UHGV virus genome: UHGV-0236227
Origin: a virus
Direction: 5' to 3' (one strand)
DNA length: 30,354 nt
In this document: piece by piece, positions 8,716-29,000 of the stretch
Layout: every line of letters starts with the position of its first letter
Position numbering within the stretch: the stretch's first letter is position 1
The notes under the pieces: model-generated
Seen by the model: the letters and a program-made list of their open reading frames with translations, nothing else
What the model was told of the DNA's origin: nothing
Databases searched by the model: none
Program-made: the position numbers and the translations under genes

Positions 8716-8744
8716 TTGACATTTAACGCACTAATTATTACCTT
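8716..8744 (+). promoter_or_regulatory. Candidate promoter (TTGACA -35) overlapping a TTACC-N5-GGTAA palindrome, pointing toward the tRNA
   Basis: TTGACA at 8716..8721; the -10 element is not clean (TAATTA/TACCTT candidates). Confidence 0.35.
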
Positions 8745-9074: not shown

Positions 9075-9151
9075 GTGGCATTAGCTCAGTTGGACAGAGC
9101 AACCGCCTTCTAAGCGGTTGGTCGCAGGTTCGAATCCTGCATGCCACGCCA
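9075..9151 (+). tRNA. tRNA-Arg (anticodon UCU), phage-encoded
   Basis: 77-nt cloverleaf folded by hand: 7-bp acceptor stem GTGGCAT/ATGCCAC, D-arm GCTC-AGTTGGACA-GAGC, anticodon stem ACCGC/GCGGT with loop CTTCTAA, T-arm GCAGG-TTCGAAT-CCTGC, encoded CCA end. Confidence 0.9.
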
Positions 9152-9194
9152 GAATCACGCCTAAGGACCGTGATGCCAGAAGTTCCAGGGGCTT

Positions 9195-9236
9195 GGCGGT
9201 GATGGTTTCCCTTGAAGGACTATCACCGCCCTTTTT
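9195..9236 (+). terminator. Intrinsic terminator after the tRNA
   Basis: 9-bp stem GGCGGTGAT/ATCACCGCC with an 18-nt loop, followed by CTTTTT. Confidence 0.55.
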
Positions 9237-9314
9237 ACAGCAGGACGCCATTGCGATGGCTTCATGCTGTAAACCAGTACAGCCACGGAAGGCATAACTC
9301 ATTGCTTCCAGTTC

Positions 9315-9339
9315 GCCCGGTTCGCCGGGCATTTTTTTA
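9315..9339 (+). terminator. Intrinsic terminator immediately upstream of the 118-aa ORF RBS
   Basis: GCCCGG-ttcg-CCGGGC hairpin followed by a run of 7 T. Confidence 0.55.
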
Positions 9340-9349
9340 AGGTGAGATT

Positions 9350-9706
9350 ATGAACGACCAGCAAATCGAAAAAGAAATCGCTGAGAAAGGCAAAACGGCA
9401 CCGCGAGTTACGCCCCAATATATCGAAAGCATCATTCTTGAAGAGCATTTCTTTACTGCTTATGACGGCATTCGTGCTGCCAATATGGGCGTTGGCGATT
9501 CATGGACAGCGCATAAATCTACAGACCTCCTGACTTTCTGCGTACTGGTGCTGAAGAATGGCTTCACCGTCACCGGAGAGAGCGCCTGTGCAAGCCCGGA
9601 AAACTTTGATGCAGAAATTGGTCGGAAGATTGCCCGGCAGAATGCTGTAAACAAAATCTGGATGCTTGAAGGTTACTTGCTGAAGCAGAAGTTAAGCGAG
9701 CAATAA
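9350..9706 (+). CDS. Small phage accessory protein (Gp49-like, tentative)
   Basis: 118-aa ORF with AGGTGA Shine-Dalgarno; opposite strand to flanking terminase and portal; family assignment is from recalled motifs only. Confidence 0.55.
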   Translation: MNDQQIEKEIAEKGKTAPRVTPQYIESIILEEHFFTAYDGIRAANMGVGDSWTAHKSTDLLTFCVLVLKNGFTVTGESACASPENFDAEIGRKIARQNAVNKIWMLEGYLLKQKLSEQ

Positions 9707-9710
9707 CACC

Positions 9711-9722
9711 GTGACATGTCAC
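9711..9722. repeat. Perfect 12-bp palindrome GTGACATGTCAC (copy 1), preceded by ATAACACC
   Basis: Read directly; second copy at 12165..12176 with the same ATAACACC context. Confidence 0.6.
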
Positions 9723-9726
9723 AAAC

Positions 9727-9753
9727 AGCCAGCCTATGAGCTGGCTTTGTTTT
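9727..9753 (+). terminator. Intrinsic terminator after the 118-aa ORF
   Basis: AGCCAGC-N6-GCTGGCT hairpin followed by TTGTTTT. Confidence 0.55.
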
Positions 9754-9796
9754 ATCCTCACCAGAGGATATCAACGACATTATCCCCACCAGCGGA

Positions 9797-11272
9797 TTAA
9801 GCATAGGGATCGTAATCTGTAATGGCCTTGCCTTGCTGGTTCTGCTGACCTGGAATTCGCAGACGCTTCGACACAGGGAAAGCAAACGTCAGCAATAGCG
9901 CATCGCCTTTACCCGGCGAACGCCCAAGACGCTCTTTGATATCTTCCTTCGGTTCGATAACGATTTTACCGTCCACACGAACTTTGTACTCTGCCGCCGA
10001 CAGGTCGTCTGCAGTTTCCTGGTCATCCAGCATGCCGCCCAGCCTCAGCCATGTCTTACATGAGTTGAACATCTCCCCACGCTTGTTAAGCATCTGCGGG
10101 TCAGTGGACGCACCGCCGAACGGAACAAGTTGCCATGTACGTCCCCAGCCATCACCGATTGACTTCAGACCGGTTCCGTAACCGAAGTCGATGAACACCG
10201 CGTCAGCCTGGTACTGGTCTTCAAAGTCAGCGATACGCTTCGCCATAATCAGATCGTCGGTGGTCTTGTTGCCGGTCCACAGCACCTTACTGTGCAGCCC
10301 CTGCCGCAGGTATATCACCGCGTCATCAACGCCTGAATATGCCGGGTCAACACCGATTATCACCGGAGCATGTGCAACCTGCGCAGCGGTTACCACCCGT
10401 TTCATTGCCTCGTCAGTAAGACCGGTAGGGATAAACTGCAATTCAGATGCATCAGGGAATATGCCACGCACACGGATTTTAACGAAGTCGCTATCTTCCC
10501 CGTAGTCATCAACCCATTTCTGCAACTGCTGTTTGTTGGTGCCTTCCACCGTCCTGCTGTCAATCTGCGCAGTTTTCCAGCGGTGTTTGTATTTGCGGAA
10601 ACATTCACGGAAACGCCCGGTGTTACGTGTAGGGTTTCCGAAAGCCACCCAGATAATCTCAGTGTCTTCGTCCGTTAGCGCACCCTCGGCAACTTCCCAC
10701 ACCAGATCCGCAATGTTCGACGCTTCATCAAATACCACGATGATGCGTTTACGCTCGTTGTGTAGTCCGGCGAATGCCTCAGTGTTGTGCTCAGACCAGG
10801 GGATTGCGTCAGCTCGCCACCGCTTGTCGTGCCCAGGGTCATTGCTGTACATCGCGGTAGCGGTACAGGTAAACCAGTCTTTCGTGATAGCAAGGTTTGA
10901 CCACTTGATAATTTCCGGCCAGGTCTTCGTTCGTAGCTGGTTGTCGGTGTTGGCGGTCACCACGACCTTACAATCCTCGCAAGTGGACATGCCCCAGTTG
11001 GTCAGCATTGAGATGAATGCGGATTTACCAATACCGTGACCAGAAGCACGTGCCAGCATAAGCGGCTGATATCGCGTCTCTGGATTCTGCAGGTGATCAC
11101 GTATCTCTCGGAACGCATCAGCCTGCCACTGACGTGGGCCGGTGGCATGTGCCAGTTCAGTCCCCTCTTCCCCCCATGGGAACGCATAGAGGGCATAGCC
11201 AAGCGGATCGTGAGTGAACCCTGCAATATCCTCGATTAACTGCTCTTCAGGAGATAACGCTGTATCTGTCAC
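9797..11272 (-). CDS. Terminase large subunit
   Basis: 491-aa ORF with Walker A-like ASGHGIGKS, Walker B-like IIVVFDEAS and a C-terminal acidic nuclease-like segment (VIIGVDPAYSG); ATGA coupling to the terS-like gene. Confidence 0.9.
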   Translation of the reverse strand: MTDTALSPEEQLIEDIAGFTHDPLGYALYAFPWGEEGTELAHATGPRQWQADAFREIRDHLQNPETRYQPLMLARASGHGIGKSAFISMLTNWGMSTCEDCKVVVTANTDNQLRTKTWPEIIKWSNLAITKDWFTCTATAMYSNDPGHDKRWRADAIPWSEHNTEAFAGLHNERKRIIVVFDEASNIADLVWEVAEGALTDEDTEIIWVAFGNPTRNTGRFRECFRKYKHRWKTAQIDSRTVEGTNKQQLQKWVDDYGEDSDFVKIRVRGIFPDASELQFIPTGLTDEAMKRVVTAAQVAHAPVIIGVDPAYSGVDDAVIYLRQGLHSKVLWTGNKTTDDLIMAKRIADFEDQYQADAVFIDFGYGTGLKSIGDGWGRTWQLVPFGGASTDPQMLNKRGEMFNSCKTWLRLGGMLDDQETADDLSAAEYKVRVDGKIVIEPKEDIKERLGRSPGKGDALLLTFAFPVSKRLRIPGQQNQQGKAITDYDPYA

Positions 11273-11868
11273 TGATTGCCATCCTGACGTTCTTTCAGTC
11301 TCTTCCTGGCTGCCGCTATGCGATCAGCAATTGTCACATTCACATTAACATCCAGGCGTTCTTTGAATGCGTTGACGTCGACGTGCTTACCAATCAGTTC
11401 GAGGTTCTTCACCTTGTCAGGCCATTTAATTTTTTTGAGGATGCCAACCAGCTCTTTCTCGTCTCCACGGCCTTCGAACATGTCGGCCAGTTCGAAACCT
11501 GTCAGGTACTGCCGCCAGACCTTAGGCCATTCCGAGACCGGCTTGATGCTCATATCGTCGTTGAGAATGTCAATCACGTCCATCTGGTCGATCTCCACCA
11601 GGCGCATGAGAACGTAATCAGCACTGACGCGCATTCGTTTGTTGCGCTCCTCCATCAACTCGGCAATCCGTTTTTGAATGCGTTCATCGCGCATCATGAC
11701 ACTGGCTTTAACTGCCGCTGTATTTGGGGAGAATCCTGCGTTAATCGCAGCCTGAGTCTGGTTTTCAGGCGTTTGGATGTATGACTGGCAATAAGCCTCC
11801 TGCATTGCTGTTAGTGGCTTAAATTGCGTTGATTTGCGTTTATAGGTTTTAGGTTCAGCAGGCATCAT
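11269..11868 (-). CDS. Terminase small subunit
   Basis: Directly upstream of and coupled to terL; conserved-looking core. Start uncertain: likely the internal ATG pair at 11868/11865 rather than the track start at 11946. Confidence 0.7.
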   Translation of the reverse strand: MMPAEPKTYKRKSTQFKPLTAMQEAYCQSYIQTPENQTQAAINAGFSPNTAAVKASVMMRDERIQKRIAELMEERNKRMRVSADYVLMRLVEIDQMDVIDILNDDMSIKPVSEWPKVWRQYLTGFELADMFEGRGDEKELVGILKKIKWPDKVKNLELIGKHVDVNAFKERLDVNVNVTIADRIAAARKRLKERQDGNQ

Positions 11869-11876
11869 AACCACCG

Positions 11877-11907
11877 TGGTAATAGTTACCGTTGTGGTAA
11901 TAGTACC
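11877..11907. repeat. Tandem copies of GTGGTAATAGT(T)ACC, each an inverted GGTAA...TTACC unit, just upstream of terS
   Basis: Two direct repeats 17 bp apart (11877..11890 and 11894..11907), between a terminator hairpin and the terS start codon. Confidence 0.45.
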
Positions 11908-11909
11908 AT

Positions 11910-11937
11910 GCAAAATAAAGCCGCCATAGTTGGCGGC
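11910..11937 (-). terminator. Intrinsic terminator upstream of the packaging and structural operon
   Basis: GCCGCCA-tagt-TGGCGGC hairpin followed on the minus strand by TTTATTTTG. Confidence 0.55.
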
Positions 11938-11942
11938 AGTAT

Positions 11943-12176
11943 TCAAAGTCCATCAAATTCATCGTAAAAACTCTCGTCAAGATACCCTTCCCATTTACCG
12001 CGAATGAAAATTACATCCTCGCCGCAAGGGTGCTGACTGTCGATAACTATATCCCTCCTGGCGCAACCATACTTATGCATGAGAAATTTAACCTCTTTCG
12101 GAAAATTTGCTGAGTTATCTCTCATATCTTCAAGGTCGTAGCGTATTTTTGGCATAACACCTTCGTGACATGTCAC
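11943..12176 (-). CDS. Hypothetical protein
   Basis: 77-aa ORF; start ambiguous (GTG at 12176 or ATG at 12155). Confidence 0.4.
   Translation of the reverse strand: MTCHEGVMPKIRYDLEDMRDNSANFPKEVKFLMHKYGCARRDIVIDSQHPCGEDVIFIRGKWEGYLDESFYDEFDGL
12165..12176. repeat. Perfect 12-bp palindrome GTGACATGTCAC (copy 2)
   Basis: Identical to 9711..9722, including the upstream ATAACACC. Confidence 0.6.
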
Positions 12177-12520
12177 ACTATTAATTTCGTTTCATGCCAG
12201 CCTTTAGTCACCCAGCATTGCGAGTCACCATTACACGGGCATGAATTAACGGGAACTCTCTCGCCGCACTTACCGCAAAGTTTTCTGCTGATCGATTTTA
12301 TACGCCCGCGCACACGTGCATCATCCTGGCGGATCAGCAGCGCGATGTACTCGGCCATTTCATAGGGATCGTGACCAGGGCGCCGGGCGGCGCAGTTCCG
12401 CGCCAGCATTTCCTGCTCCTGCTTATCCAGCACCAGTTCAATTTTGCGCTCACCAGCGGCGGACTGCCGAGCGCGCTGCGCGGCTTTGCGTTCTGCGGGG
12501 GATTTAGCCACGAATCGCAC
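12173..12520 (-). CDS. Cys-rich putative zinc-binding protein (candidate late-gene regulator or Lar-like protein)
   Basis: 115-aa ORF (GTG start in the track); basic N-terminus and C-terminal C-x2-C...C-x-C cluster (CGKCGERVPVNSCPCNGDSQC). Function is inferred from position upstream of terS. Confidence 0.45.
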   Translation of the reverse strand: MRFVAKSPAERKAAQRARQSAAGERKIELVLDKQEQEMLARNCAARRPGHDPYEMAEYIALLIRQDDARVRGRIKSISRKLCGKCGERVPVNSCPCNGDSQCWVTKGWHETKLIV

Positions 12521-18921: not shown

Positions 18922-19817
18922 TGCAGAACGCTGGAATCATGGATAGAACAAAATACATCGGAGGAAGCGATGTTGCAGGGATTCTTGGAATTAGCCCATG
19001 GCGCACCCCGCTTGAGGTTTATCTGGATAAGGTCCAGCCACGTGTCAAACCAGTAGACCCAAGCAAGCAGAAAGTTTTCACGCGTGGCCAGCGTATGGAG
19101 CCATACGTAATAGACCTGCTTTCTGAGGAAACAGGGATGGAAATCGTTCATCGCGGAAACCGCTATATCCACCGTGATTACGATTTTATTGCAGCTGAGA
19201 TCGATGCAGAAGCAGCGTCAGGCGAGAACATTGAGATCAAAACAGTTAGTCCGTTCAAAGCCAAAGAATGGGGAGAAATCCAGACAGATGCAATTCCTGT
19301 GCATTACACGGCCCAGGCCATGCACGGGTTGATGGTTACAAACAAACAGGTATGCGTTTTCGGTGTGCTTATCGGTGGCGACGACTTCCGAATCTATCGG
19401 GTTGAGCGTGATGAAGAAACTATCCAGGCGATCTTAGAAAAAGAAATCGCTTTCTGGGACCGAGTGAAAAATCTTAACCCGCCGGAAGCTACCAGCGTAA
19501 GCGATGTATCGCTGATGTTTGAGAAAGATGCCGGGACAAGTATCGAGGCTGACGGAAAGGCACTCGCACTATTCAACGATCTACGAGACATGAAGTCACG
19601 CAGAAAATCACTGGAAGAAGAAATAGCTATATCAGAAGAGAAGCTGAAGATGTACATGCAAGAGCACTCAGTCCTGACCCTGGACGGAAAGCCGCTCTGC
19701 ACATGGAAATCTCAGATCAGCAACAGATTCGACCAGAAGCTATTCCAGTCAGTACACCCTGAGTTATTCGAAAAATTCAAAACAACAACGACACAACGCG
19801 TCTTCAGAATGAAGTAA
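18918..19817 (+). CDS. YqaJ-like viral recombinase exonuclease
   Basis: 299-aa ORF; N-terminal YIGGSDVAGILGISPWRTPLEVY motif typical of the YqaJ/lambda-exonuclease fold; upstream of RecT. Confidence 0.85.
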   Translation: MMQNAGIMDRTKYIGGSDVAGILGISPWRTPLEVYLDKVQPRVKPVDPSKQKVFTRGQRMEPYVIDLLSEETGMEIVHRGNRYIHRDYDFIAAEIDAEAASGENIEIKTVSPFKAKEWGEIQTDAIPVHYTAQAMHGLMVTNKQVCVFGVLIGGDDFRIYRVERDEETIQAILEKEIAFWDRVKNLNPPEATSVSDVSLMFEKDAGTSIEADGKALALFNDLRDMKSRRKSLEEEIAISEEKLKMYMQEHSVLTLDGKPLCTWKSQISNRFDQKLFQSVHPELFEKFKTTTTQRVFRMK

Positions 19818-26058: not shown

Positions 26059-29000
26059 AACGTTCTTCCAGAGACTGAATCCGCTCTTTTATCTTATCCA
26101 TTTCTCTGCGCTGCCATGCTGCCTCGATATAGAATAAGAGATCAGGCCTGACCCCCCATCTAGATCCTGCTGGCGTTATTTCAACGCGCTCAATGATGTC
26201 TTCCATTACCATCACTGGATTATCATCCTCATCAACAATGATGCTCCCGTCATTATCAGTCAGCGGCATTTCCCTTTGGCCAGTAATGACGTCATCATAT
26301 ACTGCGGGATAATCGTCATAGCAAAGAAAGGCATAGCGGCATGTTGTGCTTTCTTCTTCCATGAGTCCGTGAGAAATAAGAACATCACGAAGTTGCTGCG
26401 CGATTACACCATGATGTATCCTCGCCCCTTCTTCCCCCTTTATAGCGACAGCGTTCAGCCATTTATAAGCGATATACCTGACGTCACCCCAGGCATCCAG
26501 CAATGCTTCGTCAGGAGAGACCGGCTCTGTCTTTAATGTTCCGTCACTGGTAACCACAGGATTGGAGCCAAGATAAACTGTCGAGAACCTGTTTCCCGGA
26601 CCACCAAGAGCATTTACATTATCAAGATAAGGTTTAACATCTCCGTTCTCAAAAAGATGTTCGAGTGCGTTATATACCGCGCGACGTGGAGTACTGCTTC
26701 CGGAACCATGCAACGTTATCATTGCACCATCTGCTGAAGACGTTGTTTCACCGCCGCTAACGATTAATCTCTGAGCGGTAACATCATCAGACGGTACTTT
26801 CTTCGCAATAATGGCGTAATTACCCTCAAGTTTGACTTCCGCGCGAACTTGTCCTGATGTACCTGCATGGACAGTCAGTGACTGGACGGCAACATCATCT
26901 GTGAAATCAACGGGTACAGGAACCGTCCTCACGCCTGACGTCGACATAAAAGTAGGAAGCGTTCTGTTAGGAGTGGCTCCGTAGACAAAATCCCTTGAAA
27001 CAAATTCTTCCTGTTTGATTTTCACCCTGAAACAATATAAATCAGCCGGGTGACCATCGTGAACATAAGGATATTTTCTGTTGTTATCCCCTATGCTCCA
27101 TGGGTTTAGAAAGTCTTCCCCACCGAAAATGTAGTACAGCCAGTTGTCTTTGATACAAACTGAACCAACACCAACCGCAGAGTTAACTATTCCGCCCTGA
27201 TAAATCTGATCAGTAACATTAACCCACTCTACATTATCCAGACTCCACTCATTGACGTTAACTCTGGTCATAAATGTTCTTGGATAATTTCCTGCATAAC
27301 GGTTATCAGGTTCTCCTCCTTCCCACTCACCAAATGCGCGCTCACTGCCAAAAATAATCAGCTCATCGCCAACTTTGGCAAAAGGAAGGTTTGAGTGATG
27401 AACATTATTTGGGAAGCGAAGAGAATTCCATGATGTACCTAAATCAGAGCTTCTGTGCAATGAACTACCGGGTTGAGTACTTAATGTCCCCCTGGTCGTC
27501 AGATACAGAATGCCATCATAATATTTTACACATGGCTCAGATGCATTCGCCTCATATTCTGCAGGTATGCGTCTGCGAACAAAGCTACCAGGAGAACCGA
27601 AAGCATCAGAGAAATAGAGTATCCCAAGCTCGCGTGGACCAATATCACCATTATGGTAGCCAACAGCAAAACTGTTATCGCTAATCGTCGCAAAACTGTG
27701 AATCTCAGTAACAGGAGTGCTTCCGTCAACAAAAGAAGGAATAGTTCCAAGACTGGTTTTTCTCCATGGTGACGAGTGAAATGATGTACCAAAACTCCAG
27801 TATCTACCCTCGTTATTCTGATCCACATCCTGGGTATTTTGCGTCGTAACTGTAAAAGTATTTTTATCAATAACAGTAGTCACCGTCATATTCCCGGTAA
27901 CACCTGTAACACCAGAGTTTGAGAAGTTGACAAAATCACCAGCAAATAATCCGTGATCAGTAATGCGAATATAAGCGACTTGCTGATTTGCTGCTTTCGT
28001 TATACCACCATAAGCGCGAAGGCTGCGACTCATTGGGCGATCCCACAACTCTGCAACCTGCAGTTTATTTCCGCTCACGGTCCGCGTCTCAATTACAGCA
28101 AAAAGGCGATTTCTGACAACCCCCATACTCATGCAGTGATAGTTAACTGTGGGATAGTTTTCATGTAAATCTGTAAGCCATTCCGGCGTTGTCCAGGTCT
28201 TCCCGTCATCTCCTGAGCGAACCCATGCAACATGGAGGTTATTTACACCATGGCGGTCTCCAGCCATAAAAGGCGCATAGATGACATTGTCATATACAAA
28301 CGTTTTATCCTGCGTCCAGGCGTTGTACCACGGTGTATCTGTAATTTTAAATAACTCTCCCTGGATAAAATCTTCAGAAGCATAAAAAAGAGGCTGGCCC
28401 GGTATTCTCTCAAATAAAAAACGAGCATTTTTAAATCGACTGACATCCGGAAGAGTTGATACTTTAAAAGTAAGCCCTAATCCGTCAATTTTATAACCTG
28501 GAGATGAGGCTTCAAGGCACGCGCTTATTGCAGTGGAATCGTCATTTATACCATCACCAACAGCTCCAAAATCTTTGGGGCTAATAGCATCACGCATTTT
28601 ATCCTGGAACGTTCGGTACACAGCCCCAGAACCATACTGAATAAACCAACCAAAACCACCAACAACCCCGGCGATTGCAGCATCGACATAATTACGCATT
28701 GAGCGATTATTTACAGCGTCCTGCTCAAATGATGGATCTGCAAGGTTAGAAATTTTGTTTTGCTTTGCATCGTAATATTTTGCAAGCAAAGATGGTTTCA
28801 TCAATGCACGTCTGAACCACCCAAAACATTGCTGGATCAGCATCGTCAGGTAGTCAAAGGCATCTTCATGCACTTCTGGGAAAAATTTTCCCTGATTGCG
28901 AAGGTCTGTCTCCTGCACTACATCAAGCACACGATCTATCGTAATTCGCCATCCAGTAGCAAGCGGAGACGGAAGAACCACAGAACCGCCACTATAAGTG

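Follow-up and report, generated by a model that had tools for sequence, protein, structure and literature searches.

The palindrome and its locus

The DNA analyzed here (the window) is the whole 30,354-nucleotide (nt) stretch of UHGV virus genome UHGV-0236227, which by its sequence belongs to an epsilon15/phiV10-like phage (Uetakevirus) whose late genes are on the minus strand. It contains exactly two copies of the perfect 12-base-pair (bp) palindrome GTGACATGTCAC, designated copy A and copy B (Table 1), and this report concerns these sites and their link to a 112-amino-acid (aa) protein, hereafter the regulator, that is encoded directly upstream of copy A. On the minus strand the order is the regulator gene, copy A, a 70-aa open reading frame (ORF), a terminator, two CI-type operators, terS, terL, a terminator hairpin, and copy B; beyond copy B lie a converging 118-aa gene on the plus strand and then a tRNA-Arg gene. 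The regulator gene ends inside copy A, its stop codon being the TGA at 12175-12173 of the minus strand.

A first-pass annotation of the sequence had reported the two copies of the palindrome, and their positions were confirmed exactly. It had described the copies as bracketing a small ORF, terS, and terL, which they do, all three being on the minus strand. The small ORF had been listed with 77 aa; the ORF is present but most likely has 70 aa, starting from the ATG at 12155, and the GTG start of the longer version is the palindrome itself. Scanning of the window detected six perfect 12-bp palindromes, of which GTGACATGTCAC is the only repeated one, and a search for further copies with up to one mismatch, which had been proposed as a check, found none in the window. 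A repeated 12-bp palindrome emerged in only 2 of 300 dinucleotide-preserving shuffles, in agreement with the earlier estimate that chance was an unlikely explanation. The double occurrence of the palindrome in the window is real.

The octamer ATAACACC, which was said to precede each copy, immediately adjoins copy B (at 9703-9710), but at copy A (12165) the bases TTC intervene between octamer and palindrome. The block common to both copies consists of 8 + 12 nt with a 3-nt indel, and the 14-nt direct repeat CGTGACATGTCACA is all the contiguous sequence that they have in common, the flanks being otherwise unrelated. A larger or segmental duplication, the case against which the repeat was to be checked, was ruled out because no similarity extends past these 14 nt (or the 8 + 12 nt with the indel). 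The octamer at 9703-9710 includes the TAA stop codon of the plus-strand 118-aa gene, and the one near copy A is complementary to the start codon (ATG) and Shine-Dalgarno sequence of the small ORF on the minus strand.

Table 1. Positions of the palindrome copies and neighboring features in the window
Feature	Position	Strand	Remarks
Copy A, GTGAC-AT-GTCAC	12165..12176		Exact in 78/80 close relatives
Copy B	9711..9722		Flanked by the plus-strand cargo gene (TAA) and the bidirectional terminator after terL
112-aa protein gene (epsilon15 gp49/N15 gp46 family, phrog_536, "transcriptional regulator")	12173..12511	-
70-aa ORF (phrog_1541)	11943..12155	-	Variable cargo between copy A and terminator
Intrinsic terminator, GCCGCC aacuau GGCGGC + U-run	11920..11937	-	Between early-right unit and terS
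Two CI-type operators, TTACC-N5-GGTAA	11868..11900		Just upstream of terS; class annotated in epsilon15
terS (Terminase_2)	11269..11865	-	Start taken as ATG at 11865
terL	9797..11272	-
Terminator hairpin	9727..9746		Between terL and converging cargo gene; phiV10 annotation
118-aa Gp49/Sf6-gp66 family gene (PF13876)	9350..9706	+	Variable cargo; ends TAA-CACC directly before copy B

The palindrome is conserved in close relatives, and its flanks are variable

Conservation in related phages, another check suggested at the first pass, was examined in 80 IMG/VR loci with regulators 80-99% identical. The palindrome was exact at the regulator stop codon in 78 of these close relatives and exact after terL in 52 of the 78 that could be assessed, with variable sequence around it. 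Copy A was followed by the 70-aa ORF, by an 8-codon remnant, by a umuD-like gene with a LexA box, or directly by a terminator, and at least five unrelated sequences were found at this place. Copy B was preceded by at least three different terminator hairpins, and at least seven unrelated sequences were found past it, several of which are antisense genes ending in TAA-C[AG]CC. At copy A, the BLAST homology between many phage records and the window begins no more than 2 nt from the palindrome edge; at copy B, the homology of PAS61, HEMP4, and phiv142-3 begins 0-7 nt before the palindrome. As judged from these alignments, the site is a conserved island and at the same time a mosaic joint.

Three variants of the region after copy A were observed. 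The 8-codon remnant (MHDEFDGF followed by a stop codon), which takes the place of the 70-aa ORF in many relatives, retains the C-terminal residues of this ORF, indicating that it arose by deletion within the ORF. The umuD-like cargo gene, found after copy A in five relatives, is preceded by a LexA-box-like TACTGT-N8-ACAGTA and appears to be an SOS-regulated moron between the regulator gene and terS. In one IMG/VR locus (L040), a deletion between two CATGAA repeats took the last residues of the regulator together with copy A and fused the regulator gene to the terminator region, producing a natural variant without the site.

A third class of sites was found by a scan for TGTGACATGTCACG and by inspection of whole genomes. 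In epsilon15 one site follows gp49 (39612), another follows the terL terminator (2142), and a third is at the gp18 stop codon, directly before a terminator (19517); ZX5 contains three equivalent sites; and TL-2011b contains two, one after the regulator gene and the other after ant, just before a terminator. All sites of these three phages (three, three, and two, respectively) are located at operon ends. Since the third class of sites is found at other operon ends, the bracketing of the terminase genes is incidental. It was not seen in TL-2011b and Tyrion, and it is a by-product of the operon layout.

PH444 has a third copy at 45977, ~350 bp past the point to which the window's right end aligns, and this copy adjoins a GGCCGC-gaaa-GCGGCC hairpin. 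The phage of the window probably also has a third copy of the palindrome, just outside the window. The TGA within the palindrome is the stop codon of three unrelated genes, at 19517 in epsilon15, at 39430 in ZX5, and at 12173-12175 in the window.

The site accompanies the regulator gene in distant phages

A diverse set of 60 GTDB loci (1.11 Mb) with regulator homologues of 40-87% identity was analyzed, the hosts of which included Citrobacter, Klebsiella, Pantoea, Erwinia, Serratia, Xenorhabdus, Providencia, Rahnella, Yersinia, and others. These loci contained 78 GTGAC-N2-GTCAC sequences, with ~1 expected, and spacers of 0, 1, 3, and 4 bp between the half-sites occurred 3, 0, 1, and 1 times, respectively, which is the chance level. 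The site was present in 56 of the 60 loci, and in 39 of them it started between 1 nt before and 9 nt after the first base of the regulator stop codon. Twenty-nine of these 39 sites overlap the TGA, and the other 10 follow a separate stop codon located 5-9 nt upstream; because of the latter, coding constraint cannot explain the site. The central dinucleotide is AT in Enterobacteriaceae (occasionally AC, CT, or GT) and GC in Yersinia, and the half-sites do not vary among epsilon15-like, N15-like, P2-like, and Vibrio phages.

Homologues of the regulator were detected by tblastn in further phage types. In N15, gene and site are adjacent, with the site at 39269 and the end of gene 46 at 39272. N15 (gene 46) and phiKO2 (gp45) each contain three GTGAC-TG/CA-GTCAC sites at homologous places, namely, at the stop codon of the gene (before gene 47), inside repA, and upstream of the anti-repressor region. 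The P2-like Yersinia phage vB_YenM_31.17 contains one site, at 9933, with the gene ending at 9936, and Vibrio phage K303 contains three, none of which is at the stop codon of the gene. Sites were found in seven of the eight phage genomes that carry the gene, and neither gene nor site was found in lambda, P22, or P2. Gene and site evidently move together, as one unit, among the genomes of podo-, sipho-, and myoviruses and are not specific to packaging genes.

The sites of N15 are at 28550, 33237, and 39269, and those of phiKO2 are at 31182, 36062, and 41939; one of these homologous sites is ~24 nt upstream of a promoter-like TTGACG-17-TAGAGT, identified by eye, ahead of the anti-repressor operon. 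Seven Xenorhabdus, Providencia, and Rouxiella prophages have no site at the regulator stop codon and have a copy ~4 kb upstream of the regulator gene. This copy overlaps the start of another gene, and its central ATG is the start codon, positioned 8 nt after a GGAGG.

Sites precede terminators in epsilon15-like phages

A strict terminator-like hairpin was found within 45 bp of 121 of 209 sites, compared with 5% of background positions. Where a hairpin was present, the site was nearly always on its 5' side with respect to the terminator's own direction (96:0, 18:3, and 7:0 in the three sets). In epsilon15-like phages the site is 0-41 nt 5' of intrinsic terminators. In the window, copy B is 5' of the terminator relative to the plus-strand cargo gene, this terminator having a good U-run on the plus strand and beginning 4 nt past the copy, and copy A is 5' of the terminator relative to the early-right unit, with the 70-aa ORF inserted between them. 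The palindrome was not itself called as an intrinsic terminator, and it is predicted to form only a stem of 4-5 bp and has no U-run of its own; the actual terminators are the two separate hairpins in Table 1.

A consensus scan found no promoter at either copy, and the -35/-10 candidates seen by eye near the site differ between variants because the variable sequence begins directly after the palindrome. A promoter or activator site was rejected for these reasons and because the only site of the P2-like Yersinia phage is at the stop codon of the gene, with none at its late promoters.

The dyad TTACC-N5-GGTAA, which is annotated as the CI operators of epsilon15, has 12 matches in the window (at 8738, 11868, 11886, 15315, 15377, 17611, 17659, 18371, 18433, 23687, 29281, and 29662), with 0.44 expected. 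Those outside the immunity region are directly upstream of terS, the portal operon, and the tail-fibre gene, which suggests that the late operons may be directly repressed via CI-type operators of their own. Because the late operons have such operators, the transcription units look like an operator/promoter, genes, palindrome, and terminator, in that order. Elsewhere in the window, the tRNA-Arg(TCT) gene (9075-9151, plus strand) is overlapped by an 83-aa ORF on the opposite strand (9081-9332, minus strand), with matches to phrog_4647 and to phiV10p04, which is annotated; either the tRNA gene or this ORF may be a spurious annotation.

The regulator has a predicted ribbon-helix-helix fold

The regulator belongs to a small family, with 184 representatives at 50% identity. 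The AlphaFold2 model obtained with a diverse alignment had a predicted local distance difference test score (pLDDT) of 91.3; it replaced a first model from a shallow alignment, which had a pLDDT of 66 and no Foldseek hits. The model consists of a helix (residues 5-19), an extended segment, two helices (residues 30-42 and 52-74), a Cys-rich segment, and a short helix. The basic N-terminal helix is conserved in the family, C79, C82, and C99 of the Cys-rich segment are invariant or nearly so, and a few family members gave faint Pfam hits to ribbon-helix-helix (RHH) and zinc-ribbon domains. We confidently assign the modeled fold to an RHH domain with a Cys-rich tail.

An RHH protein is an obligate dimer and contacts the major groove with an inserted two-stranded beta-ribbon; a 12-bp dyad would suit one such dimer. 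The predicted beta-strand reads RKIELVLD in the clade with central AT, NEIRARLE in the GC clade, and TRRDWVLE in the TG clade. This change of the modeled strand together with the central dinucleotide fits a ribbon that reads the center of the site.

A literature search for the function of gp49/gp46 found nothing. NAR688, a Klebsiella telomere phage, also encodes a homologue of the regulator, and a "gp46," not confirmed to be the same gene, was among only nine phage proteins detected by proteomics of lysogens (PMC12042878).

The palindrome as a candidate operator at transcription-unit ends

Taken together, the genomic comparisons and the protein model best support the view that the palindrome is a strongly conserved cis-element that forms with the regulator a previously uncharacterised RHH-operator pair of unusual 3'-end placement. 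That the palindrome is the cognate recognition site (operator) of the regulator is a reading we hold to be fairly likely, and we have greater confidence that the protein physically binds to it. A transcriptional consequence of binding is a more tentative proposal. Of the four roles put forward in the first-pass annotation, a binding site for a dimeric regulator is the one that gains support, from the predicted RHH fold of the neighboring protein and from the co-occurrence of gene and site across phages.

According to the model that we propose, the regulator would bind as a dimer, with one subunit on each invariant GTGAC half-site and the RHH beta-ribbon reading the central base pairs. The two to three sites per genome of epsilon15-like phages are located where transcription units end, immediately before intrinsic terminators, and the units concerned in the window are the early-right unit, which ends with the regulator's own gene, and the converging cargo gene near terL. 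Bound protein may gate transcription across the unit boundaries, acting either as a roadblock or insulator or as a modulator of termination. We favor such boundary control because the sites are consistently placed shortly before terminators and where the early operon ends, ahead of the late genes. Since the site is conserved and its surroundings are not, it may also serve as a short homology patch for the swapping of cargo genes. The mosaicism at the sites would most simply be a by-product of a 12-20 bp island that offers homology to RecE/RecT-type recombinases, which are annotated in TL-2011b, ZX5, and epsilon15.

Several observations weigh against the proposed pair or its action at transcript ends. 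The copy after terL is not intact in 26 of the 78 close relatives and hence is dispensable. Searches of Pfam, NCBIfam, and PDB sequences with the regulator gave nothing above threshold. The correspondence between beta-strand and central dinucleotide is confounded with overall divergence, and the loci are phylogenetically related, so the counts overstate the number of independent events. For an RHH repressor, it is unusual to have the operator at the 3' end of the repressor's own gene. Finally, the association with terminators is found in epsilon15-like phages and not in N15/phiKO2; as compared across these genomes, the terminator-adjacent layout is lineage-specific, and the family-wide function may differ from transcript-end control.

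No annotation of the site was found in the records of epsilon15, phiV10, N15, or phiKO2, and a literature search for the 12-mer found no paper containing it. Epsilon15/phiV10-like phages are common, with 989 of 5426 complete E. coli genomes matching the window region, and to our knowledge the CI repressor is the only part of their gene regulation to have been worked out. The present analysis provides a concrete protein-site pair, a 112-aa RHH/Cys-rich protein and a 12-bp dyad, that is also carried by N15-type telomere phages, P2-like Yersinia phages, and Vibrio siphoviruses. If the protein gates operon ends, this would be an unusual place of action for an RHH regulator, and it would also explain the accumulation of cargo genes at the joints. 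The half-sites are identical to those of matS, at a spacing that matS pattern searches miss. We also considered that gp49/gp46-family proteins and GTGAC-N2-GTCAC sites might constitute a previously unrecognised portable, DNA-site-directed insulator or anti-terminator that acts beside intrinsic terminators at transcription-unit ends, is common to podo-, sipho-, and myoviruses of Enterobacterales and Vibrio, and possibly also interferes with or mimics the MatP-type chromosome organization of the host; this broader proposal is speculative and, in our estimate, unlikely.

Alternative explanations

The location of the sites 5' of terminators, in the direction of the terminated transcript in epsilon15-like phages, would also suit an element that acts at the RNA level, with a hairpin (CAUG loop) in the nascent RNA or the non-template strand as the target of a nut/put/ops-like antitermination factor, with which RNA polymerase would pass the next terminator, or of a ribonuclease, for which it would be a processing or stability signal. 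Consistent with this, a small hairpin is predicted to adjoin the terminator hairpin, and some sites are just upstream of Shine-Dalgarno sequences. However, the stem is invariant across 34-99% protein divergence and shows no compensatory changes, indicating that the sequence itself is recognized and not a structure. The hairpin is weak, with a stem of 4-5 bp, the linked protein has a predicted DNA-binding fold, an Rfam scan matched only the tRNA, the N15 sites are away from terminators, and read-through at copy B would give antisense terL RNA. We therefore consider an RNA-level element doubtful, and nothing specific was found in support of the RNA processing site suggested by the first-pass annotation.

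Both copies coincide with homology breakpoints, with unrelated sequences after each of them, and several unrelated cargo genes end exactly in TAA-C[AG]CC before the site. These features raise the question of whether recombination is the primary function, the palindrome being a dedicated, attC-like crossover or insertion site for cargo cassettes. No recombinase or nuclease is linked to the site, though, and the Cys-rich tail of the regulator lacks an invariant catalytic His. Moreover, N15/phiKO2 and many of the diverse loci have sites in conserved, non-mosaic contexts, including inside repA, and any conserved intergenic island would serve RecE/RecT-type recombinases. By eye, the integron attC-type core GTTRRRY did not fit the GG[TC]GTTA flank. 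The recombination signal proposed at the first pass thus stands as far as the breakpoints are concerned, with no dedicated recombinase indicated, and recombination as the primary function is improbable.

Slightly less probable still is a site for a host factor, by which MatP, SlmA, or another GTGA...TCAC binder would recruit chromosome-organising machinery to the phage DNA. The half-sites are identical to those of matS, GTGAC[AG]N[TC]GTCAC (PMC3603311, PMC3116907), the outer 4 + 4 bases are identical to the SlmA consensus GTGAGTACTCAC (PMC3116907), and the hosts are mostly Enterobacterales and Vibrio. Against such a site, the spacing is strictly 2 bp, with the 3-bp spacing of matS seen once in 1.1 Mb compared with 78 occurrences, and the inner four bases are unlike those of the SlmA site. 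In addition, the site lies within a few nt of the stop codon of a phage gene in four phage types, its central bases vary with the clade of the phage protein, and prophages are reported to avoid matS.

A packaging signal (pac or cos) for the adjacent terminase, also suggested at the first pass, is hardly credible: the terminase genes lie between the two copies, with copy A ~300 bp upstream of terS, and the GenBank records of phiV10 and Tyrion open inside or next to the palindrome, but the site occurs in one to three copies (two to three per epsilon15-like genome), copy B is missing in a third of the relatives, and in cos phages (N15, P2-like) the site comes after the homologous gene, a long way from cos and the terminase genes. 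The palindrome was likewise rejected as a physical genome end. The Tyrion record breaks at its center and the phiV10 record after its TGA, and because Tyrion DNA is reported to be circularly permuted (PMC5754475), these record starts are numbering conventions.

Comparison with known systems

The GTGAC/GTCAC half-sites are common to matS and the phage site, but matS is 13 bp long with a 3-bp center, compared with 12 bp and a 2-bp center for the phage site. Identity with the matS/MatP system was rejected, as the spacing is wrong and hhalign of the family profile against E. coli MatP gave a probability of 0.2%. MatP, the organiser of the E. coli Ter macrodomain, and the regulator have only the generic RHH fold in common; the phage protein lacks a four-helix bundle or coiled coil and has a Cys-rich tail, and, unlike in MatP-matS, its gene adjoins a site on a phage replicon. 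The SlmA-binding site (SBS), GTGAGTACTCAC, matches in the outer GTGA/TCAC and differs in the inner bases, which are CATG in the phage site and GTAC in the SlmA consensus (PMC3116907). The CI operator of epsilon15, with the dyad ATTACC-N5-GGTAAT, is a different sequence.

There is also a likeness to P22 Mnt/Arc, CopG, and antitoxin-type RHH regulators, which likewise combine a small RHH protein with a palindromic operator beside its gene. The Mnt operator is a perfect short palindrome. The operators of these RHH regulators coincide with promoters 5' of the genes that they control and usually bind tetramers on two sub-sites, whereas the phage site is found at the 3' end of the regulator's own gene and at other operon ends by terminators, with no conserved promoter detected beside it.

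The order regulator gene, site, terminator, and terS/late genes resembles that of lambda nut/boxB-N, qut-Q, and RfaH-ops. In contrast to these systems, the regulator has no homology to N, Q, or NusG-family proteins, and no conserved promoter or pause element was found at the phage site. The late operons, moreover, have CI-type operators of their own, and some sites are past terminators or inside genes, unlike in lambda antitermination.

Boundary "linker" sequences of mosaic phages are similar in being short conserved sequences where homology starts or stops. In contrast to these linkers, the phage site is a strict dyad, associated with a single protein family and retained in different phage types, and because of this tie it appears to have a function of its own.

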